Assembly: GCA_032718475.1 (NCBI GenBank)
Contig: JAUCBJ010008664.1
Location: 1 to 32,002, forward strand
From: Nemertoderma westbladi
Lineage: Eukaryota; Animalia; Xenacoelomorpha
Length of the DNA stretch: 32,002 bases
Direction: 5' to 3'
Part shown: positions 3,001 to 32,002 of the stretch, piece by piece
How the letters are laid out: each line of letters begins with the position of its first letter
Numbering within the stretch: the first letter of the stretch is position 1
Notes under the pieces: model-generated
Told to the model about the DNA's origin: nothing
Seen by the model: only the letters and a program-made list of their open reading frames with translations
Database searches by the model: none
Translations under genes and position numbers: made by a program

Positions 3001-3517
3001 CCAACGGGAGTCCGAGTCCGGGAAAGTTCCATTGTGACTCGACAATAGAAATTAATTCTTCCCTGGCGTATCCCGCATAATTATCTTGGGTCGCTCGCTT
3101 ATTCCTCGCCCAGTCGGCTTGATGTTCTTCCACCGCAATGAATATAGTAGTTAGCACTGCAGCAGGAAGGGTAAGAAGGGGGTCCGAGTAGACTGTTACA
3201 GCCATCTGCACTCCGCGTTCGGGGGTCAGCTCTACAGTATCCGAACTGCTGGAGCTATCGGGTCGCTGGGAAGTAGGTTCTTGACCAAGATGTTGCTGCG
3301 ATGGGACAACTGCCTCTTGGTTCCGTTTGACCTGTGCCCGAGTGCCTATGATGGACCTATGGTGGATTAGCCTAGGGTCTGATACTACTGGAGGGATGAC
3401 CTTTTTTGCAGTAGGAGGTGAGCTGAACTCCTTTCTTAATCGCTCCACACTCCTATCTGAGTCACAGATAGTTGTATCGATCAGACTGTCTGACAGGTTT
3501 TGCTGAGTGTCAGACAT
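2..3517 (-). CDS. gag: Bel/Pao LTR retrotransposon gag (N-terminal part of gag-pol), open through the left window edge
   Basis: I translated the minus frame by hand: ATG at 3517 (in-frame TAG just upstream), no stop down to position 2 (at least 1172 codons). It contains an Ala/Glu/Lys coiled coil (AEAERKAAADAEAERKAAAD, ~2220-2340), a DUF1759-like capsid segment (VKFNGDEMKWLPFNEYY...EKLRFLMKCLEGPPK...WDTLNIRYG, ~980-1200) and the Bel/Pao triple zinc knuckle CALCDGTHRLSAC / CYNCLRPGHQRRTC / CAKCGAKHHILLH (~160-355). It is absent from the ORF track because it has no stop in the window. Confidence 0.93.
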   Translation of the reverse strand, partial: MSDTQQNLSDSLIDTTICDSDRSVERLRKEFSSPPTAKKVIPPVVSDPRLIHHRSIIGTRAQVKRNQEAVVPSQQHLGQEPTSQRPDSSSSSDTVELTPERGVQMAVTVYSDPLLTLPAAVLTTIFIAVEEHQADWARNKRATQDNYAGYAREELISIVESQWNFPGLGLPLDLSEATWEDIHRMGVAKDTMDPAVWKRSASGYVQGFFGSLERLEEQLFRQPQGPQEQEELLYQVRERTLRIRLILSAFEETSKRRQDTSLQVAVKTWLHRVDLKVQETAQWKSQLAERSTYEEPTNVTLSQAESEETAEKPRTRDAIDIYLSDYQRFLGDEELRRRLSGLSPNSEGTKLVLDSIDAEMLAANQAECDEKLRLTRVREEQIKKRRIEEQKAAAMAEAEVERKAAAADAEAERKAAAADAEAERKAAKAVAEAERRASEQTTQLELENLQETQDSINKQFTANQMQMMRKSTPKRQGYTSSEEGETTDPEGGGNRSHLSRRRKTSYRRKLPDLPPAVRRQLASTDLSSIEPTAQSIKVQRLSTIVDEPEIIRPVVPKVTSVLETPVLPELNSKFPLHSTTLPVPGGAVQENIPVQIAEREIKNLSPVVPRQPATMLATPASAVEWVEEGRRGMNLLLGQMQETVHQLKGTVREGRAELQEVQQSIALERDKLVNIQRGIPIPPVTLCQPVRSEVLHAQGVEPTRIYTASEVETPIANPIKGDYRPVINDIPYRPDNDPRNLYTDNSILNNTMAQESFTRQMARTEARQAVKVGEIVKFNGDEMKWLPFNEYYKDSIQNSVLSNGEKLRFLMKCLEGPPKLMALKFIGHPEGLRQVWDTLNIRYGNKDNIAKYLYAKLVAPRHFLSSGIIEFSDEIQEICRQLDWLGKSHEYQSSMVIGAVVSTLPKGGVCTRWDKKVLYMNEQQRRSPTMADLMSFLDGEVKLQLIKQSREKTSENKVSEKPTSRRRVTPVCYTDDGESQASQEEDSGKDTDRSYYVDKTSKDVSKYKARNNDRREQVAKTPPQSPNRMHRRKPEEKTRVHQVTQGKVSNIKPNCALCDGTHRLSACAEFLKKSLVDRRTVVWDKRLCYNCLRPGHQRRTCYSDIKCAKCGAKHHILLHSEFERDKQSQVSEPELHVQFSDVNDTDQESEMEGFYTDEFSDANESCYLINTA

Positions 3518-3629
3518 GTTTAGCTATACAGTTGAATGTCTACTACTATAGTTTCAGTTAAAGCAAGTCTGGTAATTCAGTATGACCGCAAGCCTAGCGA
3601 TTTATTACCGATACCGTCACTCAGTGTAA

Positions 3630-8458: not shown

Positions 8459-8635
8459 TGTTGCAACTGGTTGTTGCGACTCAATAACAAAGAAGCACTA
8501 CCAATGGTACTGTGTACCCTAGGCCTACCTAAGTCCCAGTGGTTGCTAAGCAAACAAATATACATTTCAACCGTTTTATCTAATAGTATGTTTCGAGTCT
8601 GTGTAGATTGCAGATTGTAATATGTGGCCGCCACA
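8459..8635 (-). repeat. Gypsy 3' LTR (177 bp)
   Basis: TGTTGCAACTGGTTGTTGCGACTCAATAACAAAGAAGCACTAC...TTTTATCTAATAGTATGTTTCGAGTCTGTGTAGATTGCAG..TGTAATATGTGGCCGCCACA aligns to 12612-12727 apart from about 60 extra bp. Confidence 0.93.
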
Positions 8636-8652
8636 TGACCCCCCCCCCCAGA
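8636..8652 (-). promoter_or_regulatory. Polypurine tract of the Gypsy element
   Basis: The minus strand reads CTGGGGGGGGGGGTCA immediately before the TG of the 3' LTR. Confidence 0.85.
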
Positions 8653-8666
8653 CTCGAAATATAGAA

Positions 8667-11600
8667 TTACAGGTAGTTGGGAGGGTGAACATTTCGGCCC
8701 GACCGAGTTTGTACGTGCAGTTTGTTCCAGTTCTGTGTCGGTTTTGTGGGCACCGGCCATGTCCTGGGAAGTTGAGGTTCTGGTGAAGGAACATGAGCAA
8801 TCGGAGGCTGTCCTCTATGGTGAGGCTGTCCGAGGACGACGGGCTCGGAGCAGTCGAGGTGCGCAGGTTTCAATCGGTCCACAGACACAGTTTCAGTGCG
8901 ACCCCCCATGTCGACCTGGAACGTCTTCGGCCCGTGGACGAGGACCTTGTATGGGCCCTCATAGGGACGATCCAGAGGAGTCCGGTGGGCGTCTCGTCGG
9001 ACGAAGACGTAGGTAGCCTCGTGGAGATCATGGGGAACCGATGATGGGGTGCAACCGTGACGCGATGTGGGAACCGGGGCGAACCAGCTGACTCATGGAG
9101 TTGCGGGAGGATCGTGGATGGGGTGTGTGGAGCATTCGGAGCTGATGGCAGGAACTCGCCTGGGACTATGTAAGTGGGGCACCATAGACGAGCTCGGTGG
9201 AGGAGGTTCCCAAGTCGTCCTTGGGGGCAGTGCGGATCCCAAGGAGAACTCACGGCAACTCGTCGACCCAATAGGGGCTGGTGAGGGAGGCGCGGAGGGT
9301 GGCCTTGAGGTGACGGTGGAAACGTTCCACCAGTCCTTTCGCCTGTGGGTGGTAGGCCGTGGTGCGGTGCAGTTGGGTGCCAAGCAACTGGTTTATGGCA
9401 GACCAGAGCTGGGAGGCAAACTGTGAACCGCAGTCGGAGGAGATGTCGGCTGGAACGCCAAACTGGGCAATCCAAATCGCAATGAGGGCGTGGGCGCAGC
9501 TCTATGTTGAAATATCCGCGAGTGGCACCGCTTCCGGCCACCGAGTAAACCAGTCCACCATGGTTAGTAGGTAGTTGAACCCCTGTGATGGTGGCAGAGG
9601 GCTGACGATGTCCACATGGATATGGTCAAAGCGGCGGTGGGGCAACTCGATGGTGCTGAGGGGAGTGCGCAGCGCACGTGGTGATGAATTTTAGAAGTCT
9701 GGCACAGCATACAAGTCTTTGCCCACTCTCCAACTTGTTTCTGCAGGCCATGCCAGATAAACCTGTTGGTGATGATAGTTCTGGTGGTTCGAATGCTGGG
9801 GTGGGACAGTCCGTGTATGGCGTCGAAAACATGGCAGCGCCACGAGATGGGAACTACAGGACGAGGACAGCCGAGGGAGACGTCGAAGAGCAGCGTGGTG
9901 CCGGAGGGACCGATCGGGACATCCTCCAGCTGCAGGCTGGAGATGGCGGTGCGGTAGGCAGGTATTTCGGCATCGACACATTGTGCAGTTGCCATGGCCG
10001 CGTAGTCGAGACAGGGAAGAAGGGCCTGGACTGCACCGAAATGGGTCCTTGAGAGCGCGTCAGCCACACGGTTATCTTTGACTGAGACGTGAGCGATCGC
10101 TGTGGTGAACTTGGAAATATAAGCAAGGTGCCGTTGTTGTCTGGCGGACCATGGGTCGCTGATCTTTGCAAATTAGAATGTAAGGGGCTTGTGATCGGTG
10201 TAGACAGTGAAGCGCGGCCCTCCATAAAATACCAGAAGTTGCGATCCGCGAGGTACAGGGCGAGGTGTTCGCGGTCGAATACACTGTATTTGACTTCCGA
10301 TGGACGGAGTTGGCGGCTAAAGAATGCTAGGGGGCACCACAAGTCGCCAACGAGTTGCTCGAGGACGGCACCTACCACCGTGCCAGAGGTGTCCACGATG
10401 AGTGGCGTGGGGGTGTTGGCGTCAGGGTGGACAAGCATTGTTGCATTGGCAAGGGCCTCCTTGGAGTCCTGGAATGCGCCCGCCATGTCGGAAGTCCAGT
10501 CGAGGATCTTCGGTTTCTCGGCAAGGGCTGCATAGAGAGGCCGCATGGTTGTAGCGGTAGCGGGGACGAACCAGTGGTAAAAGTTTACCATGCCTGGGAA
10601 CTCCTGCAGGACAGGCCCTTAATGGTGGTCGGCTGGGCGAAGTCCCGGATGGCGGCGACCTTGTCGGGAAGCGGGACGTCGCCATCGGCTGAGACGCGGT
10701 GGCCGAGGGGCTGGCACTTCCCCAGGTTAATGACAAGGCCTTTTTGTTGGAGGCGAGTAAACAGCTGTCGGAGGTGATCGCGGTGCTCCTTGGGTGACCT
10801 AATTGCGATGATGATGTCGTCGAGGTATACGAAGACAAAGTCGAGCCCCTGGCACACTGTGTCCATAAGCCGTTGGAAGGCCTGGGCCGCATTCTTCAAC
10901 CTGAACGGCATTCGAAGGAATTCGAACAGGCTGAATGGGGTTATGATGGCTGTCTTGGCGATGTTGGCCTTGTGAACAGGGATCTGGTGGTAGCCACACA
11001 CCAGATCGATCTTGGAAAAGATCTTGGCCCCAGCCAGTCGGGAGGAGAAGACCTGGATGTGAGGGATGGGGTACCGGTCCGGGGTTGTGGCATCGTTGAG
11101 GCGCCTGTAGTCGCCACATGGCTGTCTACCACCCGAGGGTTTAAGAGCCATGTGAAGGGGCGACGACCAGGGGCTGTTGGACCAACGGATGATACCCATG
11201 TCTTCCATCCTCCGGAACTCCTCTCGCGCAATCTCGAGTTTGTCCAGCAATAGGCGACGGGAGCAGGCATGCACAGGAGGTCCCTGGGTGGGGATGTAGT
11301 GCTCCACGCCGTGTTTTCCTGTGGGGTCGGAGAACCGCGGCACCATAATGTCGGGGAACTCGGCGAGTAACCGGGCAAAATCGTCATCAGAGGTGGTGAC
11401 TGAACCGAGGTGGAGGGCGTGACCAGTGGTTCATCCACACTGGATCGAGGTCAGCGTCTCGGTGTCGACCAGTCGGTGACCTCTCAGGTCGACCAACAAG
11501 TTGTTGGCTCGGAGGAAGTCAGCTCCAAGGAGAGGCTGGGTGATGTCGGCGGTGGTGAACTCCCATTCAAACTCCCGAGTTTGTCTGCAGCAAAACAGTG

Positions 11601-12528
11601 CGGTATCCATAGGTCCGAATGGAAGTTTTGATGTGGTGTTGTGATTGTTGTGGATCATGGGTTGTTGGCATGGGCTGTTGTGATTCGTGCGAGTCGTTTC
11701 TGGAATCATGCTGACCTCGGCCCCAGTGTCCACTAAGAATCGTTGCCCGGAAGTGCAATCCAGGGCAAAAAGCAGCAGATCGGGGTGGCCGGCCGTGGCC
11801 GCTGCTACTGGCCGGCTGGAGCGTTTCCTGCGAAAGTGCAGGGTGGGCGGCACTGCATAGCATTGGTACCGAAGGTTCAATGGTGGTAACACCACTCATC
11901 CTGTGCAGTTGCGGTTGAGGGTGCCGAGTTCATTGGCTTGGAGGCAGGGGTTCGAGTTGAGGTTGTCTTTCCGGTTTTTGGAAGCGCTTTTCATCCCGAC
12001 AACTACTGGTTTCGTAGCAGCGTGGGCGGAGAATGAGTTCAGCCGTGAAGTCACCCACAGCGTGTCAGCCCAGTCCGCGAGTCGGTCGAGGTCGCGAAAG
12101 TCCTCCTCGGCTAGTTAAAGGCGGATGTCAGCGGGCATCTGCCAGAGGAACACTTCCTCAAACAGCTGGCAGCTGTGGTTGTCACCAAGTAGTGCCTTCA
12201 TCTCGCTGAAAAGTTGAGAGGGACAGCGGTCACCGAGGCTGTTCAAATCCCAGAGCCGGGCAGCGCGGTCGCGGCGAGAAAGTCCGTAGGTCTTTAACAG
12301 CTTCGCCTTGATCGTGGTATACTGTTTGGTGGTGGGTGGGTTTCGAATGAGGTTGAGGAGTTGGCTGGTGGTGTCCTGGTCGAGGGCCCCCACCACTTAG
12401 TAATATTTAGTTTCCTCAGCAGTTATCCCCCAGTGGATGAACTGGGCCTTGGCCTGCTCGAACCACACATCCGGGTGTGTGGTCCAGAAGGTCGGCAGTT
12501 TGAGTGCAACTGCGTTGGCTTCAGCCAT
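8667..12528 (-). pseudogene. pol: Gypsy gag-pol, disrupted by multiple stops and frameshifts
   Basis: Gag starts MAEANAVALKLPTFWTTHPDVWFEQ at 12528 (in-frame TAA at ~12398). Protease FLVDTGAEVS lies in 11431-11895, RT DYRRLN...FSKIDL...MPFRLKNA...YLDD in 10585-11346, RNase H LIVDTSGTVVGAVL in 9854-10591, integrase H2C2 HGLSH...CMLC in 9564-10067, and the C-terminal VSVDRLKPA in 8667-8909. Confidence 0.94.
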
Positions 12529-12601
12529 TGCCTTGCAGCACTAGGAAGATAGAAGGGGTGCAGTGTTCTAGGGCTAACTTTAAAATACGTTCAAAGTCAT
12601 T

Positions 12602-12610
12602 GGGTCACCA
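12602..12610 (-). promoter_or_regulatory. Primer binding site of the Gypsy element (tRNA-Trp-like, partial match)
   Basis: The minus strand reads TGGTGACCC one base after the 5' LTR. This matches the first 9 nt of the usual tRNA-Trp PBS (TGGTGACCCCGACG), then diverges. Confidence 0.7.
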
Positions 12611-12611
12611 T

Positions 12612-12727
12612 TGTTGTAACTTGTTGTTGCAACTCAATAACAATGAAGCACTACAGAATGGTACCTTTTATCTAATAGTATGTTTCGAGTCTGAGTAGAT
12701 TGCAGAATGTAATATATGGCCACCACA
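12612..12727 (-). repeat. Gypsy 5' LTR (116 bp)
   Basis: TGTTGTAACTTGTTGTTGCAACTCAATAACAATGAAGCACTAC...GGCCACCACA, a diverged copy of 8459-8635 adjacent to the PBS. Confidence 0.93.
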
Positions 12728-12824
12728 TTGCTATACTTTTTTAAATTAGCGATATTTATAAATTTAATTTATTACTCATATCGATTAAAACTGTCTTTAC
12801 AACTTATATTTATTATTATCCACA

Positions 12825-15617
12825 ATGGAATGTATAGAAGGTCCTTATCGAATAACAAGAAACGGACGTAAAATCTGCCTCATCATCAATATTACTAAAT
12901 ATCTCAATAGTTGCCGTGATAGAACCGATGGATCCCAACGTGATGCCGAACATATCAAGAAAGTATTTGGTGACCAGCTTCACTGTGAGGTTATGGAATT
13001 TAAACCAGAAAACAACGGTTTTATAACACGTGAGCATTTAGTTTCAGGAATGACCAGTTTTCGTAACAATGATTGTTTGAAGGATATTGAATGCCTATTC
13101 GTTTTTTTGATGAGTCACGGTTGTAGAGGTTCACTTATTTGTTCAGACCAGGAACAGGTTCCCATACGAGACGTTATTAACTTATTATCAAATGACTGCC
13201 TTTCTCTAAGATTACCGGTAGCAAAACCTCGAATATTTTTTGTGGAAGCTTGTCAATCAAATAATGCTGACTTTGATCAATATGATATTGATATATCTAG
13301 TCATAAATTCAATCACATTGCATTGGCTATGGGTTGCAGCCCAGGCGAAACACTGCCACTATACAATGATCAAGGTTCCCTTTTTATAAGTACGGTTTGC
13401 GGAATCATAAGTTATATAATACAAAACCATATACGTGGAGAAATTAAGACATTATTTGGGAAGCTAAAATCAGAACCAATATCGTACGGTCAAGAAGGTC
13501 AAATGATATCTCATCCACAAGTGACTGACAATTTACTGCACAACTTATTCCTTCTCGACTTTGTGCAGAGTGTTTCCAAATTTAGAATTGACAGTTTGTG
13601 TGAGGTACACTTTAATGGAGCTGAAAAATACCTGAAATGTGGAATTAATGGGATTGGCATTTTTGAAAAGTCCACAGAAGAAATTCTGCAACTACCAATC
13701 CCATCTCACCAAGGTTTAATTACGAGTTGCGCACTATCGCAAAGTAATAATAGAGTAGCAGGATGTTCACAGAATGGCGGTGTAGTTATCTGGGACATCG
13801 GTTGTTATCCACCGACAATATTGTATGACATTCCGCATTCTCAAATAATAATGAATATTGAGAATGAAAATCCAATCAATCAACCAGTACTCACCCCACG
13901 CAGAGCTGTCTTCAACCCAACCAATGATTCAATAATTGCAACATGCCATTGTGGTGGAAGCTGCACAATCATCCATCTTGGCAGTCAAAATATTTTACAA
14001 ATGACATGGAGATTGCACGATAATGGTGGTGTATTTGATATTGCTTACTCCCCAGATGGTACAAAACTGGCTTCATGTGCTGATAAATGGTTGACAATAT
14101 GGAATTTGGAAGGGGTGCCAATGGCTTTACCAAAAAAAATTGAAAGTCATTTTTTTGAAACTACATCACTTCTTTGTGTTAGATGGACACCTAACGGAAG
14201 ATATATGTTAACCACAAGTGAAGGGGAATTTACTGTTTATTGTTACGATATTGAAAGAAGAGAAATTGTCTGGAAGAAGCCAATAGACGCTACTCGTATT
14301 GCGATTCATGAATTTGGTAATATTTTGGCTGTTGGGGGAAGTTTGGGAATCTATCTACTGAAAACTGCTACAGGAGAACAACTTCGAAAAGTTAGTGAAA
14401 AGGAAAACGCTGCTCTCATTGGTTTAGAGTTCTTGGGAGGCAACCTTCTCATTGGTTGGAGTATTGGGCTGGTTCTAGAATATAATTTAGAAACAATATT
14501 ACAGACAAATGAAGCAAATCCACATTCAACATACGAAGTTGAACTCTCTCTCCAAAGTGACAATTTTAAAGGCTATTCTTCACATCTTGATGGACAAGAT
14601 GGAGAAATCAATAGTATTAAAGAAGGGTTCACAAATAAGGATAAACAAGTGGTTGGGAATGATACTGTAAAAGAATATTCTCCACATCCTGATAAACATG
14701 ATTCTGGAAGATTTAAAAATTGTTCTACACATGATGATGAACACTTTAATGAACCTAACAATGCTAAAGAATATTATACTCTTGACGATGAACATATTCT
14801 AGAAACTTCAGGGAATTTTCATTCTACATATAATGTAGAAGATGTTGTTGGAAGTGATATTGTTGAAAAAAGTTTTTCTCACCATTATAATCATTCTGAA
14901 TCACAAATTGAAAATCCAACCATGCTGTTGAAGGATGCTGATCGCATTCTGAGAATCAGAATGGTAGCAAACCATCTAAAGCGTCGCGATCTTAGACACA
15001 TTAATTTTCTCTGTTCTGATATGATCGATGAGAAGTGGTCAGATGAAATCGTTTCAGGACCAAAAGAGGTTTATGATCTAAGTCAAACAGGTTTAATCGC
15101 AGTGGACAACATGCACATTTTAGATATTCTTCTGTATATGGTGGAACGAAAAGATCTATTGGAATTATTGAATACGAATAGTGTAACAGTTAAAACTAGA
15201 TTACAACCTAGTCCCTTTAAATACTTCTCACCGTATCGCTGTCTACTTTATGAGGTGGCAAAGGACTTTGCAATGAAGGATTTCAGGGATTTTAAGAAGA
15301 TGTGTTGGACTCGCAATTTATTGATTACTCACTATTCTTGGGCTGATGTTACTGACACCATAGGACTAATTCGAATTCTAGAAAAGTCTAAAATCATTTC
15401 TGAGGACAATATATCCACACTTACTGAGTTTGTATCTGAAAAAGCAAATTTAGGAAAAACCCACAGTATGTTAGTCAAATACATAGATAGATTATCGTTA
15501 AAGAAACGTCACAAGGAAGATTGTCAACTGCATGAAGAGTTCCTCCAGGTGCCAGGGAACAAATCAGTAGATTCCCCAATAGTTAAGTCAGGTCAGGAGA
15601 TAAGCGAAAAGAGATAG
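12825..15617 (+). CDS. 930-aa protein: N-terminal caspase (peptidase C14A) domain, WD40 beta-propeller, acidic linker, two C-terminal death effector domains
   Basis: Uninterrupted ORF with start context ACAATGG and an in-frame TAA at 12786. Caspase, aa ~8-245: CLIIN, FLMSHG (His98), KPRIFFVEACQ (Cys143), p10-like GSLFISTVC and HPQVTDNLLHNLFL. WD40, aa ~250-556: HQGLITSCALSQSNNRVAGCSQNGGVVIWD, VFDIAYSPDGTKLASCADKWLTIWNL, LCVRWTPNGRYMLT. DED1, aa ~705-783: DLRHINFLC...LIAVDNMHIL...RKDLL. DED2, aa ~801-888: SPYRCLLYEVAKDF...LEKSKIISEDNISTL. Confidence 0.9.
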   Translation: MECIEGPYRITRNGRKICLIINITKYLNSCRDRTDGSQRDAEHIKKVFGDQLHCEVMEFKPENNGFITREHLVSGMTSFRNNDCLKDIECLFVFLMSHGCRGSLICSDQEQVPIRDVINLLSNDCLSLRLPVAKPRIFFVEACQSNNADFDQYDIDISSHKFNHIALAMGCSPGETLPLYNDQGSLFISTVCGIISYIIQNHIRGEIKTLFGKLKSEPISYGQEGQMISHPQVTDNLLHNLFLLDFVQSVSKFRIDSLCEVHFNGAEKYLKCGINGIGIFEKSTEEILQLPIPSHQGLITSCALSQSNNRVAGCSQNGGVVIWDIGCYPPTILYDIPHSQIIMNIENENPINQPVLTPRRAVFNPTNDSIIATCHCGGSCTIIHLGSQNILQMTWRLHDNGGVFDIAYSPDGTKLASCADKWLTIWNLEGVPMALPKKIESHFFETTSLLCVRWTPNGRYMLTTSEGEFTVYCYDIERREIVWKKPIDATRIAIHEFGNILAVGGSLGIYLLKTATGEQLRKVSEKENAALIGLEFLGGNLLIGWSIGLVLEYNLETILQTNEANPHSTYEVELSLQSDNFKGYSSHLDGQDGEINSIKEGFTNKDKQVVGNDTVKEYSPHPDKHDSGRFKNCSTHDDEHFNEPNNAKEYYTLDDEHILETSGNFHSTYNVEDVVGSDIVEKSFSHHYNHSESQIENPTMLLKDADRILRIRMVANHLKRRDLRHINFLCSDMIDEKWSDEIVSGPKEVYDLSQTGLIAVDNMHILDILLYMVERKDLLELLNTNSVTVKTRLQPSPFKYFSPYRCLLYEVAKDFAMKDFRDFKKMCWTRNLLITHYSWADVTDTIGLIRILEKSKIISEDNISTLTEFVSEKANLGKTHSMLVKYIDRLSLKKRHKEDCQLHEEFLQVPGNKSVDSPIVKSGQEISEKR

Positions 15618-19789: not shown

Positions 19790-20136
19790 GAGTGCTGCGT
19801 AGACTATATTCCTATAAACCAAAACCATACCTGGCTTCGCCTATTGAACGCATTATAAAGATCGTCAGTCTTCGTTTAGGAAAGATATTTAAATACAAAA
19901 CAGGACGAGCACAACGAGACTTATAATGAAGACGAGTACTGCGTTGACTATTATTATTATATAAACCACCTGGCTTCACATATTGAACGCATCCCTTGTT
20001 ATTATTATTATAAAGATCGTCAGCCTGCGTTTAAGAAATATTTTTAAATACAAAACAGGACGAACTCAACGAGGCTTATAATGAACGTACTGCGTTTATT
20101 ATATTCCTATAAACCACATGGCTTCGCATATTGAAC
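19790..20136. repeat. Tandem repeat with a ~145-155-bp unit, about 2.3 copies
   Basis: GAGT.CTGCGT.GACTAT...CCTGGCTTC.C.TATTGAACG...TATAAAGATCGTCAG...TTTAAATACAAAACAGGACGA..CAACGAG.CTTATAATGAA is repeated. Confidence 0.88.
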
Positions 20137-20364
20137 GTGCGATTGGAAATAAGTTTGTGCTACCCTTCCGCCCCGTCAGCCCGTGGGTGGTAGATTAGCG
20201 GTTATGTATTGGTTGGTGAGAAGGGGAGGGGGGGGGGGGGGGGGTGCAGATTTAAAGGGCTGAACACGTATTGTCCCCCTTTCTTTGATTGATTGGCGGT
20301 GTGGTTAAATTTCTCAAATACTTATTTTGTGATACAGTCGCTCAATTTTAATTTGTATCTCATA

Positions 20365-20555: not shown

Positions 20556-21208
20556 AGCTATAATAATAGCAAGTAATTAGTTAATTAAATTGATTACGGT
20601 AAAAACAGCACTTTCAACCTGCCTTTTAAAGGAAATTAATTATTTTACAGTATAAGATTTAAATAATTATACTTAAAAATTATACAGATGTAATCCACAT
20701 ACCCCATTCTATTATAGTTTTTAATTGATCACTAATTAATTAGTGTCTTTAATTGATCTAAACGTAATTAAAGCAGCATAATTATTGAGTACAAATTTAA
20801 TCCTGCCCATTATTGGTTAACATAGTCTCTGCGGGGGTGTAGAGCTGCTAGCTGGCTGGGAGATGTAATAGGCAACCAGTAGTATTGCTATAGCAACCCA
20901 GACATAACTCCAACCATACACTGCCTGTATTTCAATTCCTATTGACTCTATACTATAAATGTTGTATTACTTACTATCTCAGGTGACAGAAGATATAATG
21001 ACTTGTAGGCTTATATCTGAAATAGTTTATTCCGCAATATATTTTTCTGGTTATTTTTTAATTGAATTTTTGCAAAGTAGTAAAATTAATGTTCTTAAAA
21101 ATAATATTATTATATTATTTTATATGTAACCTAGAAAATTATCTAAATTTTTTCGCTGCAGCTTTAAGAGTGTCCACATTGATTTAATATTATTTCAATA
21201 CCCATATT

Positions 21209-22546
21209 CAGGCCCGTATCGTGCGGGGGGGGGGCTTTGGGGGCACTGCCCCCCCCCCCCCCCCCCCCCAGAGAAGTCTCACTGCCCCCCAGACATGTAT
21301 TGTTCACTCGTCTTGTTCACAATTAATTAATAATAATATTTTTGGTAATCAATATTATTGGATTCACATACTCCTGCCCACTGACCTGACCTGACTCCCC
21401 ACCGTTCCTTTTGCTGATTTGGTCCAATTCTATAATACTACATCACATTAATATACCTACCTACCTGTAATTACTAAAAATACTTGAAAGCTCTAGGTTC
21501 TCTCATTGGCTACCAGGGTGGAGGGGTTGTTTGTTGTTGACCCATTGTCTAGTTGCTTGTAGTTGGGAGCCAGCTTGCAGCTAAAAGGCTTGGCGCTGAG
21601 GGTTGCTTGCGCTGGTATCCATAGCTAAAAATGGTTGTAACTTAGCCTTAAAACCATATTATACCTGAAGTCGGTCCTTCGCGCAGCACGTGATATAAAG
21701 TTATGTATTTAAGTGTAATCTTGAAAGAAAAATCATCAAAATCTAAGCAGATACCCTTGATCACTTTACACCAGCCTAGAGGCAGGCTTGAAAAATGCAG
21801 TCGATTTAACAGTTTAACCCTTGTGCTCTCTTTGGGGTCATTTTTGACCCATCAAAGATTTAAACTTACACAATTTTATCGCACATTGATATTTTATCTC
21901 GAAATTTTGTGACATTTATTATTTTATAGTACTTCTCAATTAGAAAAACAAAAATGTAAAAATTTTCAAGGGGGTCTTTTCAATTTTACAATTTATTGGG
22001 GCCTACACATATGACCTTGAGGTCAAATTTCACCTCATCGTGATTTGTACCTGTACCATTCAATATCAACGAAAAACTTTTTTTGAATTTCAACTCAGTT
22101 CGCACATCATACAGTATGTCATCAAATGGGCCCAAACTTAGCCCGCCCTTTGCCTTGGCACTTGGCACAAGAGAGTCATATTCCCCATTTTTGTGATGAT
22201 CAACTTCTAGTATTCCTACTGCATTGATATTATGCTCATTTAGAACCGCAATGACCGATTTAGTTGTTGTAGACACCTTCAAAACAAGCATAAAGAGAAT
22301 ATTTTTTTGAGATATGTCAGGTATTTGTCAATATCGCATCAAGGCGCTAATTTTGACTTGTACCGGACTTCACATTATCTGCAATAACTCAAAAACTATT
22401 CGCTCTATGTTTGTTTTGAAGGTGTCTTCTAAATTAACTAAATTAACACTCACTTTGTTGTATGCTCCCCAAATCCCTGTTATGGGTTTGCCCCCCCCAG
22501 ATTTGGCCTCTGCCCCCCCAGATGTTATGATCACCATACAGGCCTG
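21209..22546. mobile_element. hAT-like non-autonomous element (~1.3 kb), probably with nested insertions
   Basis: TIRs CAGGCCCGTAT / ATACAGGCCTG (one mismatch), an 8-bp TSD CCCATATT / CCCTTATT (one mismatch), and subterminal TGCCCCCCCAGA repeats at both ends. Confidence 0.8.
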
Positions 22547-22656
22547 CCCTTATTACTACATCGACATATAATGCGTTGGCGTTGTATCACACATCTCCAC
22601 ATAGATGTATCAGCAGTTACTCGCACAGTTTCGAAACTTCGCATAGTTATAACTGT

Positions 22657-22807
22657 ATAAAGATTGTCAGTCTTGGTTTAGGAAAAATATGGACAAAACA
22701 GGACGAGTGCAACGAGGCATATAATGAAGACGAGTACTGTGTAGACTATATTCCTATTAACCATACCTGGCTTCGCCTATTGAAGGCATCAGTAGTTATA
22801 AAGATCG
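22657..22807. repeat. Additional unit of the ~150-bp repeat seen at 19790-20136
   Basis: TATAAAGATTGTCAGTCTT...CAAAACAGGACGAGTGCAACGAGGCATATAATGAAGACGAGTACTGTGTAGACTATATTCCTAT..ACCATACCTGGCTTCGCCTATTGAA. Confidence 0.85.
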
Positions 22808-23042
22808 CATCTAATTGCATCTTATTGCACTAATTGCACTTTTAATTAAATTTGCACTTAGGGGTTGGTATTACTTAACATGTGGTGCCTTCCAGGCATC
22901 ACCACATCTAAGTTCTAGTTCGCTCCTCCTGACTTTGGGAACCATCTCAACTACTTCCCTCTGTCGTCCTCCTCCCTCGGTCGTTTCCTGTTCGTTGCCG
23001 CTCCCTTGTTCTTATCCCCTTTTAGGTTCCTGATCCTTGCCG

Positions 23043-25543
23043 TCACCTCTCTACCGATTCCCTGGGCGCTGGTGTTATTAGCTCCCAGTATCGCTTCGTG
23101 GGTGGCCCCTCCGAATGGCCCTGTTGTTTCCCCCTAGTGGCGTCCCATAGGATCACTTTTATAGCCCGCGGCACATGCTCCGCCAAGAAATCTCTGAACT
23201 CTCCCCGGTTCTGTGGTGTCCACCTGTCCAAATACCTCTGAGTATTTATCACTCCGGCATACGACGCCGCCGTTGACACCTCCTGATAAGTAAACGGAAG
23301 TCTCTGTTTAATAATTTCCAGGTGGGCCTCCTGGTTGATATTAAAGAAGCCCCACCGGAATTCCTGGGCCTTCATCCGCTGCCGGGTCATAGCGCCGACA
23401 TCGGCCCACTCCTCGAAGATCCTAAACTTCTCCTCGTCGTCCATCCAGTCGCACTGGCGTCCGTAGTGCCCCCGGAAGTTGCACTTAGAACACCGGTTGT
23501 GCAACCGTGGACACGCCCCCATCCTATGACTCGACTCGCAGCAGTAGAGACAGCTAGTCCCTTTCTGGAATCGCTACAAGCAGCTCCTTTCCTGGTGAGT
23601 CTGCCTCCCGCAGTAATCGCAGCTGAGTACCAATGCCTCCCGCCCCACGTCGTCTTTCGTCCCAAGCGATCTCCTCGGTCTATGGAGTCGCTGGTAAGCA
23701 AACTTCTGGACGTTAGCGTCTCTGTCCACGTCTATCTCCTCGCCCCGCCAGGGCATCGTCTCTCCGAATACTACCCGTGGTGCCGTTCCCGGTTGCTCGC
23801 CCAACCTGATGGTGCTCCCCGCGAAATCCATCGCCGGTTCCTCATGCACCCAGGCCTGCCTGCTGGGTCTATCCCAGAAGGCTCTCGCCCCGCTGGCCAT
23901 CACCACTCTACCGCCAACCCAGTCCGTGTCCGAGTGGCCGATTCTCCCGATGGGCGGCATCTCTTCGAACTCGTTGTCATCCTCGTCCTCCTCTGGGAGT
24001 GGCTCCAATCCCGGTATCCCGGTGGATCCACTGTGTCCCTTCCCACCTTGGCTCTCGCCCGTGATTCTCCATCCTTCCAGTTCCATTGGCCTCCTCTGCG
24101 CAAAATCGCCCTCGGCGCCCGCTGGTATGGGCGTTGTCTGCAAACCCGATGTCGACTGTTTCGGCGATCCTACCGTCCACCCCAATTCTCGCCCTAGAGA
24201 CTCGCCCAAACTCCCTGATGTCCAGTGCAGGTCATCTAAGGCCGCCTGTTCCTCGAACCCGTAGCCTTCTCCTCTAGTTTCCGCCTCCCTTTCTTCTGCC
24301 TCCCTCCTTTCTCGCCTCTCGTCTATCCGCCTCTAGCTGCTCCCACCTCTGATATGGCGTATCCACCTCCCCATCTACTAGATATCAGCAGTTATAGTAT
24401 ACCTTCAGCCCCGGGTGGTCTACCTGACCCTCAAAAGCCACTTTGAAGGCTCTTCCTTTGTTCAGGGGTGATCCCGATAGCAGGAATGCCGTTGGTTCTC
24501 TCTCGATAACCACGGTCATAAATAGGTTTAGCAAACCTATCATTATCCAGTCCTCCTGCAGGATATATCGCTTCTGATATACCTTTATCACTCCTCTCCG
24601 GAATTGATACACCTCTTGCTTCCCCCTTCTCGCTCCCCACTTCAGCGAGTTTGCCAACTCCGCCTCGTACTCCTCTCTGAATTTACTCCAGTCCATTGGT
24701 TTGTGGCATACGAGACCCATCATCCGACCCATCGCCACCGCTCCACAATGGCCCACGTTCTCTACTAGTCCCAACCCGTCTGGCGCTGTCATAGCCATGT
24801 AGACCGTCTGCATGTCCAGGAGGTTGGGGGTCTCCGGACCGATGATCCTCTCCGCATCGTTGCAGATCGCCGATCCCACCTTTATCGTCGACTTCTCTCT
24901 TATTAGGTACTGCACCGCCTTTGGCAACCGGTTTAACTTCGGCCCGTTCTTCTTCCCATACGTTCCCAGATCGAACAGGAAAATATCCCCATTTGGCGTG
25001 GCCAAATGTAGGAGTATAGTTCTGGCCGACCCCACCGACCCTCTTCTCGAACCTTCCTTGTCCTCCACGGTCCCCTCATCGTCTAGGACCATGTATCCTC
25101 CCCTGCTGACGGAGTCTACGAACCTCTTCCAGTCTTTTCTCGGTGGTTCCTTTGGATACTTTGGTATCTCGAACTTTGCCTCGTCTCCCCTCACCACGTA
25201 GTGGAAATGCCTCGAAGATCACGTTGTCTAGCGATGGTGTCCCGTAGGTCCCGACCAGCCGCTGTTCGTGCACCTCCCTGAAATGGTCCTGCAGCGCTCG
25301 CGCTTTGTGACCCCTCTCTAACTGCTCGTAGTATCCCCTCGTCTTCTCTTCCGAATGCCTTTCGGTGAAATCCACCAGTATCTCCTTTCCTCCCAACTCC
25401 GCCTTTCTCTTTCTGACAAGTTTCTCCGCCATTTCGAACTCTCCCGATCGCTCACCTATAAGGTGGGGCCTTGCCAAGGCACAATACAAGTGAGTGATGT
25501 AGTTAGGATGGTCTGTACAGTCCGATAATGGCCTATCTCTCAC
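23043..25543 (-). pseudogene. Disrupted accessory ORF: DEDDy (WRN/EXD2-like) 3'-5' exonuclease, charged/acidic region, three CCHC zinc knuckles
   Basis: Consecutive minus ORFs 25076-25543, 24385-25197, 23574-24209 and 23043-23522. The last two are in the same frame, separated by one TAG. Exonuclease motifs: YMVLDDEG, ILLHLATPNGDIFLFDL, LPKAVQYLI, IKVGSAICND, LLDMQTVY, QKRYILQED. Knuckles: CDYCGRQTHQERSC, CLYCCESSHRMGAC, CSKCNFRGHYGRQC (23451-23621). The first ATG in good context is at 25432. Confidence 0.75.
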
Positions 25544-25861
25544 TGAATGTTAGGTTATCGCCTAATTTTTCTACCTTATTTTCTAAAAGTGCTAAATTTA
25601 CTAAATTCTGTAATTTTTGTCCGTTACTTTAATTGTGTTCTGGAATATTTTTCCCTACTGTTACCATAATTTGTCTAATTTCTAATTTTTTAATATTTAT
25701 TTTAATTCTACAACTGTGCTATCAGTATCTACTAATGCATTATTCTACTTATAATCCACATTCTGGCCTACTCTATGGGCTTGTGCAGTACAGCAGTATG
25801 TCTCGTGTGGCCTACACGATCTGTCCAGCTGTACCCACGTGCCCCCCTCTCACTACTCACT

Positions 25862-26410
25862 CCTAACTCTACTAACTTTCTAACTAATTTCTACTAACTC
25901 TTACTAACTCTTACTATATACTACATAGCTTCCTACCACTAACTCTTACTACTAACGGTACTACACATACCCTCTTACTAACTACTCTACTAACGGTACA
26001 ACACGTACCCTCTTACTAACTCTTCTACTAACGGTACTACACGTACCCTCTTACTAACTCTTTTACTAACGTACCCTCTTACTAACTAACTCCACTAACT
26101 CTTACTACCAGTACTACGTACCCTCTTACTAACTAACTTCACTAACTCTTACTAACGGTACTATGTACCCTCTTACTAACCAACTCCACTAACTCTTACT
26201 AACGGTACTACGTACCATCTTACTAACCAAGTCCACTAACTCTTACTGATGGTACTACGTACCCTCTTACTAACTAACTCTTACTGACTAACGGTACTAC
26301 GTACCCTCTTACTACTAACTCCACTAACTAACGGTACTACATACCCTCTTACTAACTAACTAATTCTCTAACTAACGGTACTACGTACCCTCTTACTAAC
26401 TCTTACTAAA
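25862..26410. repeat. Minisatellite (~38-47-bp unit, about 10-11 copies) built from CTCTTACTAAC plus the hairpin GGTAC-TAC-GTACC
   Basis: Hairpin cores or variants at ~25957, 25995, 26033, 26111, 26157, 26204, 26251, 26293, 26333 and 26377. Confidence 0.92.
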
Positions 26411-26538
26411 ACTTCTATCTGCCTACTTACTCACTACATACCTACTATGTACTATTACTTTCCTTTCTCTTACTCTTTTTCTCTTTTATTTTTTTTTATT
26501 TTATTATATTTTGTGTGGGAAGGGCGTCTCGCCCTCAA

Positions 26539-26551
26539 TCCCACCCCCCTC
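26539..26551 (-). promoter_or_regulatory. Polypurine-tract-like sequence directly after Bel/Pao B pol
   Basis: The minus strand reads GAGGGGGGTGGGA-T-TGAGGGCG, about 25 nt after the pol stop at 26577. This is where Bel/Pao elements normally have the PPT and the start of the 3' LTR. Confidence 0.65.
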
Positions 26552-26576
26552 AGTCCAACACTTGGACGACTAAACT

Positions 26577-29500
26577 CTACAGTGCCCCTTCTAGCAGGCA
26601 GCACTTTCCTACAGCCCTCCTGTAGGTCTTCCTATCTTTCGCTCCTATCTTACCACCTATCCGCACTTCCACCGATTGGACTCTTCCGTCCTCGTCAGAG
26701 TAAGTGTCCACTACTTTTGCCAATCTCCATTGATTGTTGATGATGGTGTCGTCCATGACGATCACCAAATCACCCTTCTTTAACTCCCTTGTGGTATTTC
26801 TCCACTTACTCCTCCTATGAAGTGTGGGTAGATATTCCTCGACCCACCTCCTCCAGTACTCCGCGCTTATCGCCTTAGCAACTTTCCAACTCTGTCGGGA
26901 GTGTATATCGTCTGGGTCTACACCCCGCATGTCGATGGTCGCCGGCCTCTCCATTAGAAAGTGACTGGGTGTCAGCACATCTAATGATTCTGGGTCATCA
27001 TTTTCTGGGTATAGCGGTCTGCTATTAATGATACCCTCGCACTTAGCTAGCACCGTCCTTAGTACATCTTCTGTCACCATGTGGGTGTTCATCAACTTCG
27101 TCATCAGACGCTTGGAACTACCTACCGACGCATCCTAAAGTATGCGGAGCATACGGCGTCCTCCTCTCCCACTTCACCTGTCGTCTTCTCATGGCTGCCC
27201 TGACTTCCTCCCCTTCCAGGATGTCCAAGGCCTCTGCCAGCTCGTTCTCCACCACCACAAAGTTGGTTCCATTATCGGAGTATATTACTGCAATCGTCCC
27301 ACCTTTGCGGTCTCTGAACCTCACTAGGGCATTGATGAATGCCGATGCGGTTGCGTCTTGGGCGAGTTCTATTCCTACCGCCTGCGTGTTGTTACATACG
27401 AAGATAATGCCGTAGCGCTTCTCCGTGTGCCGCATCACCCTGATCTTTATTGGCCCGAACATATCTACACCGCAGTGCGTGAATGGCGGGTCGTGCTGTC
27501 TCACCCTGCTGGCCAGTAATGGCGCCATCTCCTGTATGGCCCGCTCCTTCCTTGTCCATCGGCAGGTCTGGCACTGCCCCACTACCGCCTTCACCTTCTT
27601 CCTTAGCTGTATGATCCAGAAGGTCCTCCGGATCTCCGTGAGGGTCCGGTTGGTGCCCCCGTGCAATATCGACTTGTGGGAGTCCCAAATGACCTGGTGG
27701 ACTATCGGCGATCCATTTGGGATGATGATGGGTTTTGGTGGGATAATGAGGCTGTTGTTATTTAGCACTCTGGAGTTCATTACTAAGATCCCATTGTCAT
27801 TGAGTTGTGGCGACAGCGTGATAAGCTCGCTGTCCCGTCGAAGATGTTGTTGTTTACCGACGTGCTCCATTCCACTTTCTCTGTTCGTAGCGAATCACGG
27901 CCTTGACCGCTCCCTCCAGATCGATGTTTGGTTTCTTCTTGCTGTCTTTGCCGACTCCCTTGAGGAAATCCCCGAAGGCTCTCCAGTACGCCACTAACTT
28001 CTTGGTCTTGTACCAACTTGAGCTGTAGCTGAGGAGTTTGTCCGTTGGTTATCGCATGATTCTTCTGGTTTTGGTTGCACGTCCCTGATCTCCCTCACTA
28101 TCTGACTATATATCTCTTCACCTTCTGAGTCTCCTCCCTCTTCCTCTAGTACTACATCCTCTGAGCCCGGGTCCACCTTCTTCATCGGTGGCCAGGCTGT
28201 CTTATCGTCCAGGAATTGCGGCCCGTGCTGCCACAATACTTCCTTCTTCAAGAAAGTGTGGCGTGCCACGCCCCTCGATAACAAGTCTGCTGGGTTCTCG
28301 TCCATTGGGCAGTAGTGCCCCCTTTCCAATTCCGTCTTCGCTCTTATCTTGTCCACCCTATTTGCGACAAATATAGGGTATCTCGTCTTCTCATTGTGTA
28401 GCCAACCAAGTACTACCATGGAGTCCGTCCAATAGTGTGTTTCCACTATGTTGGGGATATTGTCCATCAAGTAGGCTGTGGCTCTTACTCCTAACCCCGC
28501 AGCTGTCAACTCGAGTTTCGGGACCAATGCTGAATCTGGCAGCATTGACTTTGCTTTGCTGAATGCAAGTCTAGGCTTATGAGCCCCCTCCCGTTGTACT
28601 AGGTAGAGTGCCACTTCGTATGCTTCCAACGACGCATCGGAGAACATGTGTAGATCCAGATTTGCCATATCCCCATCTGGGAAATACACGCGTGGCATGA
28701 TGTATGTCCCCATCTGTTCTAAACTCTCTGTCCACTTACTCCACTGCTTGCTGATCTCTTCCGGGACCTCTGTATCCCACTCGTCCTTTAGCTTATATAC
28801 TTTCTTAAGTATTTGCTTCCCCGTGACTAATAGTGGGGATGCTAGGCCTAGGGGATCGTATATCTGTGCTATGTACGATACATAGCCCCTCTTTGTGTGG
28901 ATGTCCGCGCCCTCTTGGCTCAGCTGGTACTTGAACTCGTCCGTCTCTCTGTTCCACACGATCCCTAACACCTTCTGCTGGGACTCTACCCTCTTGTTCG
29001 CCATGTCCTGTCCCTTGGCTGTTGTGGGATTATCCATGGTCGACTCTGGCCTCCTGTCCTCTATGGCTTTCATAAACTCTTCCGAGCTGGATTGGAACTT
29101 GGTCAAGTTAAACCCGGATCCCTTCAGGATGTCGCGAACCTTGCGCCCTGTATCCAGCAGTTCTTTAACCGTGTTTCCAGACTCCATTCCGTCGTCTACA
29201 TAGAAGCCGCGTCAAATCATATTGACGGCTTTGGTGCTATATCTCTCCTCTTTCCCCTCTACTGTGTCCCTCACAGCCACAGTCGTCGTGAATTAGGACG
29301 ACTTGGTCCCCATATTCTGCACCAACATCTTGTACATCGGTATTGTCAACGGTTCCTCGTCGCCATTGTACCATAGGAAGCGCTGACTGTCACTATCCTC
29401 CTCCATTACACGGACTTGGTTGAACATGCCTTCAATGTCGCAGGTGAAGGCGTTCCTCCCGTTTCTGAATCTGAGTAGGACCTCGATCCCTGAGTTGTAG

Positions 29501-32002
29501 ATATTAGGACCCTCCAGCAGATAATCGTTTAGGCATTTTCCGTTGGTCTTAGCCGATGCGTCAACTACCATCCGCAGTTTACCTTTCTTCGGGTCTAGAG
29601 CCACGTGAAGTGGTAGGTACTAGGTCCTGTCCGTGTTTGGTTTGTCGACCGGTAACTCCACGGCCCATCCTTTCTTGACGTACTTTCTTATCATCCTATG
29701 AATGTACTTATTCTTTTCGGGGCTCCGTCTTAGCGTTTGCTTCAGTTTACGAAGCCTCGTGAGTACCATTCCCTTGTTGTCAGGTAGCGGTAATTTTGGT
29801 TGTTTCCATACCATCCCTATGGTGTATTGTCCCTTGTCGCATCTCATTGACTCCTTTACGCTTTGCATTGCCTGTTTATCTTCTACCGAGGTTCAGACCC
29901 CGGTCTATTTTAATCCCTCAAAATCCTGCCTGAGTAGTCTCCTGAGCTGCTCCTCCGCTCCTTCATCTTCCATCTCCCGCATAGTTCCCGCGAACATGCA
30001 CACTGATGTCTCCGACATTCTAAACGGTATCTTGGCTCTAATTGGGCCGCTCAGCGTCCACTCAAATGGTGTTAAAATTGCCACCGGGTCACACTGTCTG
30101 TCTTCGCCGAAGACCATCTGCATTCTCTCGTGGGTTGTTGGGCAGTCCATTCCTACTATAATGGATACTTTCCTAACGTCCACCTCTGGTATTGAGAAGT
30201 CAATACTGTCCAGGAATCTATATTGTTCGACCTCGATGTTGGTTGGTCGCCTGGCGTTGATATTTATCGACTCTATCACCTGAATGGGGTCGATTGTCGC
30301 CCCATAATTGCATCCCAGTGCTATCGGTGCTATCCCGCACCGTCCAGTCCTCATCTCCAGGACCTCATCTTTGCTGGAGATGGTTGTTACCCCCATTCTA
30401 CTTGGCCTTGTCTCCACTTCAATCCTATCTCTTCGAACACCCAATTCTCGACTAATGTAAAGGCTGCCATCGTCTGTCCTTTGCTTTGACCGAACTTAAT
30501 TGGTGTTTCCTTGCATTGGTTAGCTCTATGTCCACCTGTCACACATCGAGGACAGATGAAGTGATGAAGTGCGTTCGTGTGTAATTGGCATTTGTTGTTT
30601 GGGTTATAGCCATCCTTGTATAGTACGCTGCGTATCGCATTTGCGTTCGTACCTAGATCCCTACTGTTCTTATTGTTTGGGTTCGGCCTACTGGGCGTGA
30701 TGGGGTTATGTTTATTTGTGTTGTTATTCTTCCCCTGTCCGCTCCATGGTGTGGCCCTACCCTTGGCTACATGTGGACTAGTAGTCCCCTGTGTCGCTGA
30801 GTATGGCAGCGATTGTCTGAGCTTTGGCAATGCGTTCGCCGCGTTGTGTTCTGGTTTCGGCCTATTGTATTCGGTCTTTGGCCACTTTCCCAGACTATCC
30901 TCGCTATAGACTGGGTCTGTGATCAATTCGGCTTTATAGTTTAGGAAGCTCGACATTTCTTCTAGGCCCGGTTCCGCACCCTTCCTCTCTCGAGTGGAGA
31001 AAGCGATTTTCCTCCACTTGTTGCGCAGCCAGATCGGTAGTGCCTGAGCTATCGTGGTGATGTTATTAGATGCGTTGAGTTTGTATGGCGCGTCTAGCGT
31101 CTTTAACACAATTAGCGCCTTCTTGACGTTGTTCGCCATCGTCTTTATGCTAACGGGGTTATCCTGTAGGCCACCCGATGTTATACCTCTCAGGGTTTGC
31201 CGGATGATCTTGGCCGGGTGCCCGCACTCCATGTCTAGCGCCCGCCATGCTGTCGTGAAGCCACCCTTGATACCCTGGTACTGCCTCACGATGTCGTATG
31301 CTGGGCCTCCTGTATACACCTGTAGATATTTTAGGCACTCCACCTGCGTCAGGTTCTTCGTCAATATTTTATTGCTGTACATGCGCCGAAATTGCAGGTA
31401 TTCTTCCGGCCTACTTCCAACGAATTTAAATGGCTCTACGGGTGGTAACTCGATCCTGGTCTTTAATGCATCGATTAATGTAGCCATTCCCATCGCCTGT
31501 GCTTCCAATGGGTTCGATGGATGCTGTACAGATTCTCCCGTTGGGTGCAGTCCGCCCGTCCTATCTGTTGCCCTTCTCTGTATCGGGTATATCATTAGGG
31601 GTAGCGGCCCCCCTCATATTTCCGTGTTGCATGATCTGTTCTCGTCCAGGGGGTTCGATGTTCTTATTCCTGTTTGAGTATATTGTTGATATTGTAATGG
31701 GGGAATGTCACCCTGCCCCCCCCCCCCCCCCCCCCCCTACCGGTATGTTTGGTACTGGGGTTGATGTTAATATATTGGGGCCCATGCACCTATCCGCAAT
31801 AGCTCTCCCCTCTCCTGGATATATGTTATGTCCTTGCATGCTATAGTCATACTGTTGTGCTGGTACCGGTATAGGCCTATCCACTTCTGGCCTACCTACC
31901 GGTATGTACTCCGCAACTTCTGGGTTTAATCCCGTCGCCTGCACTGCCCTATCGCCTTCGCCTACATTATCTCTCCCAGCATGGCCTATAGTATGTGCAG
32001 TA
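26577..32002 (-). pseudogene. pol: Bel/Pao gag-pol, disrupted (stops, frameshifts, small deletions)
   Basis: DUF1759-like gag (FVGSRPEEYLQFRRMY...CLKYLQVYTGGPA, 30387-31595). RT KLRMVVDASAK...LLRFR...DIEGMFNQV...QRFLW with FYVDD at ~29191-29205. Pao RNase H region IYDPLGL...LHMFSDASLEAY...PKLELTAA...WTDSMVVLGW (27994-29187). Integrase HKSILHGG...CQTC, GVDMFGP, SDNGTNF (27118-27870). DUF5641-like LTPSHFL...YWRRWVEEYL (26577-27104). Confidence 0.95.

Follow-up and report, generated by a model that had tools for sequence, protein, structure and literature searches.

A Bel/Pao retrotransposon with a third reading frame predicted to join a DEDDy-type 3ʹ-5ʹ exonuclease domain to three zinc knuckles

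The only third gene described for the Belpaoviridae is env-like (PMC8742986). A stretch of 32,002 nucleotides from Nemertoderma westbladi, analysed here at its full length and called the window, raises the question of whether a Bel/Pao element might carry a gene of another kind. A broken frame of about 2.4 kb (ORF3) lies on the minus strand, which is also the strand of pol, 1 kb after pol/integrase, and the original prediction read it as a DEDDy 3ʹ-5ʹ exonuclease followed by a triple CCHC zinc knuckle. What does this frame encode, does it belong to the element, and how might its product act? We favour the view that a multi-copy family of Bel/Pao LTR retrotransposons with ORF3 is represented in the window by a decayed copy, an account that is narrowly probable when taken as a whole.

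The host element occupies the right end of the window, where a decayed gag is followed on the minus strand by pol in pieces (Table 1). A Pfam search found DUF1759, Peptidase_A17 (E 2e-37), Integrase_H2C2 (E 6e-11), rve (E 0.003) and DUF5641 (E 2e-24) in the order expected of a Bel/Pao gag-pol, and both this order and the families agree with descriptions of the group (PMC8742986 and the available text of PMC3118150). The assignment of the host element to Bel/Pao is thereby borne out by DUF1759, Peptidase_A17, Integrase_H2C2 and DUF5641. Pol consists of six stop-free pieces and has its 3ʹ end at 26577; the protease piece and the first reverse transcriptase piece gave no Pfam match and were assigned by position. 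Because gag runs past the end of the window, the 5ʹ end of the element and its 5ʹ LTR lie outside, and no LTR pair was found within the window by repeat search or self-BLAST. The G-rich tract that directly follows the pol stop could, from its composition, be the polypurine tract. Gag contains one complete CCHC knuckle at 30513-30554 (minus strand), preceded by a C/H-rich variant, which raises the possibility that the knuckles of ORF3 compensate for a reduced array in gag.

Table 1. Positions of the element's genes and neighbouring features within the window.
Feature	Position	Strand	Basis
Bel/Pao gag, broken	30387..32001	-	DUF1759 E 7e-8 on 30387-31613
Bel/Pao pol in pieces: protease region, RT, RNase H/Peptidase_A17, integrase, DUF5641	26577..30495	-	Pfam
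G-rich purine tract directly after pol stop	26539..26551	-	read from sequence
AT-rich spacer between pol and ORF3, with 38- and 47-nt tandem arrays at 25863-26401	25550..26538	-	repeats, contig joints in 4 runs
ORF3 N-terminal piece, charged, first ATG 25430-25432	25214..25549	-	third-position composition as in pol
Predicted DEDDy 3ʹ-5ʹ exonuclease domain, WRN/Mut-7/EXD2 group; D46, E48, D121, Y218, E222	24388..25218	-	profile, motif and selection tests
Linker: Glu/Arg-rich predicted coil, Gly/Pro-rich stretch, acidic patch	23622..24387	-	translation
Three CX2CX4HX4C zinc knuckles	23451..23621	-	motif scan, shuffles
ORF3 C-terminal region, ~135 aa, without known family	23043..23450	-	
RNA hairpin downstream of ORF3	22873..22913	-	-17.3 kcal/mol

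The flanks of the element are AT-rich and crowded with other repeats. A second, different Bel/Pao gag, open over 1174 codons, occupies 2-3523 on the minus strand and contains DUF1759, knuckles and 33-nt tandem repeats. A decayed Gypsy-like element with an RVT_1 domain lies at 8459-12728 on the same strand, and the direct repeats at 8459-8636 and 12612-12728, about 4.1 kb apart, are probably its LTRs. A 157-nt MITE-like element with 37-nt inverted arms is found at 22271-22427. The plus strand carries an intronless open frame of 942 codons at 12789-15617, which begins with a caspase domain (Peptidase_C14, E 6e-21) and continues with WD40 repeats and two C-terminal death effector domains, an unusual order. 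Its active-site motif reads EACQS, where the usual caspase motif is QACxG.

ORF3 runs from its first ATG, which we take to be the start codon, to position 23043, and it comprises four stop-free pieces (25076-25549, 24385-25218, 23574-24332 and 23043-23573). Between them lie two frame changes, one near 25210 and the other near 24335, and in-frame stops at 24385-87 and 23574-76, in agreement with the earlier view that the region can be joined across about two frameshifts and a few stops. This copy of the ORF3-bearing element is dead. The motifs VLDDEG, LLHLAT, FLFDL, IKVGSAICND and YILQED and the three knuckles all lie on the minus strand where the original prediction had placed them. The nuclease frame is stop-free and measures 277 aa from stop to stop; an earlier count of 270 aa begins seven codons later. 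In the N-terminal frame a C-x2-H-x5-H-x2-C cluster (25480-25520, minus strand) lies shortly before the first ATG, and further upstream there is an open stretch in another frame; together they hint that ORF3 might start earlier than 25432 or be spliced.

Outside the nuclease frame, neither the N-terminal piece nor the linker, which contains one stop and one frame change, matched a family (for the linker, in Pfam, NCBIfam and PHROGs), and a search among longer proteins gave no relative of the C-terminal piece. Exact CX2CX4HX4C knuckles lie in tandem at 23580-23621, 23511-23552 and 23451-23492, the in-frame stop at 23574-76 separating the first from the second. When the 430-codon frame was shuffled 50,000 times, a single knuckle arose in six shuffles and two or more in none. 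Matches of the knuckles to zf-CCHC in Pfam were weak (E 0.02-7, below cut-offs), as were matches of the knuckle region to nucleocapsid and AIR2 proteins (E 0.17-4.5). A hydropathy scan of ORF3 found no membrane anchor or hydrophobic fusion segment: the highest 19-residue value was 1.46, in the ExoIII helix, and the other three pieces reached 0.13-0.42. ORF3 is therefore not env, which upholds the observation that it does not resemble that gene.

A 306-aa plus-strand frame at 23277-24197 was treated as an antisense shadow. An origin of ORF3 as a host pseudogene was rejected, given that ORF3 is multi-copy, its domain is free of introns and its composition is unlike that of the host gene. The hairpin downstream of ORF3 has a z score of -3.6 in a 56-nt window picked around it and of -1.8 in 150 nt. 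It is followed by 10-nt tandem repeats at 22807-22838 and, from about 22807, by another repeat family; no Rfam family was found in 21000-27000. Hairpins with short tandem repeats are reminiscent of the 3ʹ ends of some LINEs. Repeats that share a unit of about 150 nt occur at 19790-20140 and 22656-22807, and one of these copies directly adjoins the element on its 3ʹ side.

Could the nuclease frame be recognized by direct comparison with known proteins? Its motifs are precisely placed: VLDDEG contains D46 (25081-83) and E48 (25075-77), IKVGSAICND contains D121 (24856-58), and YILQED begins with Y218 (24565-67) and ends with E222 and D223. Nevertheless, PF01612 was not reached at its curated cut-off and no Pfam family matched at E <= 1, so that the Pfam check proposed with the original prediction came back negative. 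Searches of Pfam, NCBIfam, PHROGs and PDB sequences gave no match at loose thresholds either, and no relative emerged from a word search of 5.8 billion proteins of near and longer lengths or from metagenome and viral contigs, phages and plasmids. Among 1.84 billion representative proteins there was no true relative, the two matches both being TPR repeat proteins. The seven weak matches in 301 bacterial genomes included no exonuclease by inspection, and pairwise phmmer comparison with 13 single enzymes found nothing.

Comparisons that draw on whole families tell more. The ESM Atlas features of the nuclease frame scored 0.93-0.94 against PF01612 clusters, a level to be read against the 4-10 of 100 shuffled proteins that reach 0.9. 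In the cluster at 0.94, 34% of members carry PF01612; three unnamed eukaryotic clusters score higher (0.95-0.96), and PF01612 occurs in 30 of 30 matches to named clusters, the second of which is named 'Werner syndrome-like exonuclease'. We also built a WRN/EXD2-type profile from 59 bacterial enzymes (60 candidates, one dropped for a missing motif), whose best PDB matches were WRN (E 2e-31), Mut-7 (E 1e-21) and EXD2 (E 2e-19). With this profile in HMMER, the nuclease frame ranked first of 2083 sequences, a set that includes 2000 shuffles, the reversed nuclease frame and 81 other frames of the window, yet it scored 6.5 bits only. In hhalign, the frame aligned to the same profile with E 0.0021 and a probability of 13.5%, compared with E values of 0.4 and 0.095 for two control frames. 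A profile of 56 NrnC, RNase D and Pol I domains left the frame undetected at rank 173 of 1054, and the signal is therefore specific to the WRN group.

The order of the conserved elements points the same way. Six conserved blocks, which coincide with the motifs named in the original prediction, were found in order with a score of 83.8 (shuffles 30.4 +/- 6.9, none of 5000 as high), the best among 24 frames of the window, where the next best of the other 23 reached 48.2; block edges were set after the alignment had been viewed, and block scores come from the alignment without the query. The DxE of ExoI and the Asp of ExoII stand in the sequence context and order of the WRN group. An ExoII pattern of fixed spacing, built from the columns that WRN shares with three Dada sequences (PMC3706591, Fig. 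S1) and chosen after the likeness had been noticed, matched once in the six frames of the whole window, at the nuclease, and in 4 of 200,000 shuffles. Structure prediction added less. For a single-sequence AlphaFold model (pLDDT 31.7), Foldseek and VIA returned nothing but noise. An alignment-guided fold (pLDDT 68.9) matched WRN with Z 11.9 (rmsd 3.6, 163 aligned residues) and tied it with RNase D, EXD1, Nibbler and TbRND (Z about 12), which indicates compatibility only, because an alignment of WRN-type enzymes itself supplied the fold and the test is circular. Overall, the ESM Atlas, profile-rank, hhalign and six-block tests support the original assignment of the 277-aa frame, as predicted from its sequence, to the DEDDy-type exonuclease domains of the WRN/Mut-7/EXD2 group.

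Whether this frame once served the family can be judged from other copies. Contigs from four runs (X1-X4), which carry one species label and come from three studies, were placed on the region. The 921 bases of the nuclease were covered by 1977, 1343, 1285 and 5 contigs, respectively, and in the first three runs the largest class was 90-95% alike, which means that the family is multi-copy and diverged. Over 167 bases, one contig of X1 matches the window without a difference; X2 and X4 belong to other studies, and X1/X3 may be the origin of the window sequence. Selection was assessed for the nuclease frame only, using the best-supported 40 of 158 variant rows, 37 of which lie in the open frame. 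Copies vary among themselves at 22 of these sites; 17 of the 22 fall on third codon positions (p 3e-5), and 14 are silent as against 6.3 expected when changes of the same kinds are placed at random (p 0.00045). Mostly silent differences of this kind indicate that the gene was under purifying selection. The mirror frame of the nuclease shares third positions and has the same silent count (14/22), as expected, which does not point to a second gene.

Differences that set the window copy apart have another character. At 15 sites where nearly all other copies differ from it, the three codon positions are evenly represented (4/6/5), and in gag-pol 19 of 21 tested variant rows change a residue, nearly all of them separating the window copy from the others. 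The window copy has decayed on its own in both gag-pol and ORF3. At the first stop (24385-87), all covering contigs in three runs differ from the window copy, and at the first frame change a length difference appears in a minority of the depth in X1-X3 and in the single X4 contig.

WRN-group enzymes use two metal ions to remove nucleotides from 3ʹ ends. By analogy, the ORF3 product is likely to be an RNA-tethered 3ʹ-to-5ʹ trimmer, which joins a WRN/Mut-7/EXD2-type DEDDy domain to three CCHC knuckles; its message would be separate and probably spliced. D46, E48, D121 and E222 (or D223) would hold the two metal ions that remove nucleotides from a single-stranded 3ʹ end, and the knuckles would grip the RNA upstream of the trimmed end, as in TbRND. 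The least certain step concerns the substrate, which might be RNA from the cycle of the element itself. Ragged or added 3ʹ tails would be the likeliest target, whether on the element's transcript or on primers in the particle, and their trimming could keep the template fit for reverse transcription. The candidates would be, as first choice, the element's own RNA or primers, then host small RNAs or cDNA ends, or none if Glu222 disables catalysis. Trimming of an element's own RNA or primers has also been raised in PMC5408684.

The same gene, in the same element, might instead encode a counter-defence enzyme that binds host piRNAs or siRNAs, or their precursors, and degrades them from the 3ʹ end to weaken silencing, a possibility that we consider unlikely. 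Mature piRNAs bear a protective 3ʹ methyl group, which counts against this mode of attack. In its favour, the nearest structural group of the domain includes Mut-7/Nibbler and EXD1, which act in small-RNA pathways (PMC5408684); arenaviruses have an exonuclease that is proposed to suppress the immunity of their hosts (PMC7968707), and the family described here is multi-copy. Against this, in the available portions of PMC5408684, small RNAs cover every ORF type of the rotifer elements, and DEDDy ORFs show no clear relation to copy number. One variant, which we regard as doubtful, is that an independently built TbRND-like enzyme acts as an encoded counter-defence by stripping host-added U tails from the element's RNA or chewing back the 3ʹ ends of piRNAs or siRNAs. 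If true, this would be an LTR-retrotransposon enzyme aimed at host RNA surveillance, and it would explain why unrelated retrotransposon lineages have repeatedly captured 3ʹ-5ʹ exonucleases in the env slot. The role against piRNA/siRNA silencing or in cDNA processing that had been put forward with the original prediction is a guess.

In the alignment to the 59 WRN/EXD2-type enzymes, E222 rather than D223 occupies the column of the ExoIII Asp, and W224 aligns two columns beyond it, at a position occupied by Trp in most of the rows shown. The YxxxD motif of ExoIII accordingly has its Tyr, and the YILQED motif is in place as described earlier, although its fourth ligand shifts to E222; the tetrad D46-E48-D121-E222 reads D-E-D-E, with D223 adjoining, and is acidic but non-canonical at this position. 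Glu instead of Asp as fourth ligand may, judging from the alignment, weaken or end catalysis. The domain would then be weak or dead and kept as an RNA-binding platform, like EXD1, Maelstrom and Egalitarian, that carries or packages the element's RNA with the help of the coil and knuckles. This distinctly unlikely alternative would fit the substitution, the long insertions before ExoIII, the presence of a coil with three knuckles, and the reported RNA binding of dead DEDD derivatives in the piRNA pathway (PMC5408684, available text). It is opposed by the three canonical ligands of four and the Tyr, by the acidic fourth ligand with a second Asp beside it, and by the variants: none of the 37 examined rows falls in the codons of D46, D47, E48, D121, Y218 or D223, and none of the best 40 of 158 lies in 24547-24567. 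The nuclease is likely, on these sequence features, to be active despite its Glu.

A further requirement of the preferred reading is that ORF3 belongs to this gag-pol. At third codon positions, ORF3 (G 0.41-0.44, T 0.09-0.15) resembles the gag-pol of this element (G 0.31-0.36, T 0.10-0.18) and is unlike the host gene (G 0.14, T 0.39), the other Bel/Pao gag (G 0.22, T 0.25) and the Gypsy reverse transcriptase. Contigs chain ORF3 to pol: one bridges ORF3 into the spacer (25520-25741, X3), a joint from 25674 to 25751/2 recurs in all four runs, joints from 25812 or 25861 to 26292-26368 (short sides 24-48 bases) cross the tandem arrays, and one contig covers 26548-26741 from the far end of the spacer into pol. 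The chain is complete except for 62 bases outside the mapping (26458-26519), which no listed piece spans. Summed contig depth looks similar over ORF3 and pol, but it is no measure of copy number and carries no weight here. Constant linkage of the extra gene to this pol, as had been claimed, is likely, and ORF3 very probably belongs to the element.

It is improbable that the spacer of about 1 kb is instead the 3ʹ LTR and that the nuclease-knuckle gene comes from a neighbouring element or a non-autonomous derivative. The G-rich tract right behind the pol stop would suit such an LTR, as would the length of the spacer, given that Bel/Pao LTRs measure 0.2-1.2 kb and follow a purine tract of about 10 nt (PMC8742986); the bases left unbridged by mapped contigs, and the finding past ORF3 of a hairpin and 10-nt repeats with no LTR partner in the window, also fit. 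However, contigs from three studies run from the spacer into the start of ORF3, unlike what the random flanks of a 3ʹ LTR would give, ORF3 shares the strand, purine richness and third-position bias of pol, and none of the best 15 of the 122 joints listed removes ORF3. Very improbable, finally, is that the nuclease likeness arose by chance, through short motifs in coding sequence of a different descent, for although the lack of a database match, the low HMMER and hhalign scores and the uninformative single-sequence fold would allow it, the motif, ordered-block, profile and language-model tests converge on one subgroup.

Taking ORF3 as a gene of this element, its closest parallels are found in rotifers. 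The available text of PMC5408684, repeated in PMC6338049 and PMC6431247, describes DEDDy ORF3s with a DEED tetrad in Juno, Vesta and Athena/Terminon elements, where a 3ʹ-5ʹ exonuclease likewise forms a separate third ORF after pol and replaces env; in both cases these are candidate nucleases, with activity inferred from sequence. However, the rotifer hosts belong to clades with a dUTPase in pol rather than to Bel/Pao, and the tetrad is DEDE here, with D121 as the ExoII residue. The rotifer ORF3s are called RNase D-like, with no mention of CCHC knuckles in the available portions of PMC5408684, whereas ORF3 of the present element fits the WRN/EXD2 profile and not the NrnC/RNase D profile.

Other relatives share single aspects of the architecture. 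TbRND, the RNase D of Trypanosoma brucei (PDB 7c42), also places CCHC fingers in an array behind a DEDD exonuclease, and these fingers bind single-stranded RNA and raise cleavage and trimming (PMC7797062, available text). The TbRND gene is cellular and belongs to the RNase D group, and its four fingers are attached through a linker of 28 aa, whereas three fingers lie about 250 aa from the nuclease here, on a mobile element. The PDB search found no sequence match between TbRND and the nuclease frame, and the likeness is likely to be convergent. WRN, Mut-7 (Nibbler) and EXD2 (PF01612) share ExoI, the two next strands, the KVG...D ExoII motif, an LLD strand and the ExoIII helix in the same order; ORF3 differs in the Glu at ExoIII, the insertions before ExoIII and the fusion to knuckles, and its identity to bacterial members is about 20%, below Pfam detection. 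Dada DNA transposons of Laccaria and Ectocarpus carry a WRN-group DEDDy domain with a very similar ExoII block, but inside a DDE transposase and with four of four residues canonical (PMC3706591, available text).

A search of the open literature found no DEDDy third gene described for Bel/Pao elements and none fused to knuckles, although curated collections (Repbase, Dfam and GyDB) or the sequences that supplement PMC3118150 may contain such elements. The word 'exonuclease' occurs 0 times in the available main text of PMC3118150, and the available portions of PMC8278194, PMC2774666 and PMC7264820 added nothing on this point. The cargo had been called unfamiliar from Bel/Pao elements, and for that group this stands in the open literature searched; DEDDy cargo in the env position was already described in rotifer LTR elements (PMC5408684), so that novelty is confined to Bel/Pao as the host, the WRN-like subtype and the fusion to knuckles.

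With these observations, Bel/Pao joins the Gypsy-like and Penelope-like elements as a branch that carries a nuclease in the place of env. The exonuclease is of another subtype here, and this points to capture that was repeated and independent, and hence to a recurring benefit. The purifying selection seen among copies of this nuclease ORF3 contrasts with the rotifer env and GDSL ORF3s, for which the available text of PMC5408684 (2017) reports no departure from neutrality in a test that did not include the DEDDy ORFs. The fusion to knuckles supplies a concrete biochemical model in TbRND, and the role of the nuclease would be testable on a small isolated domain.
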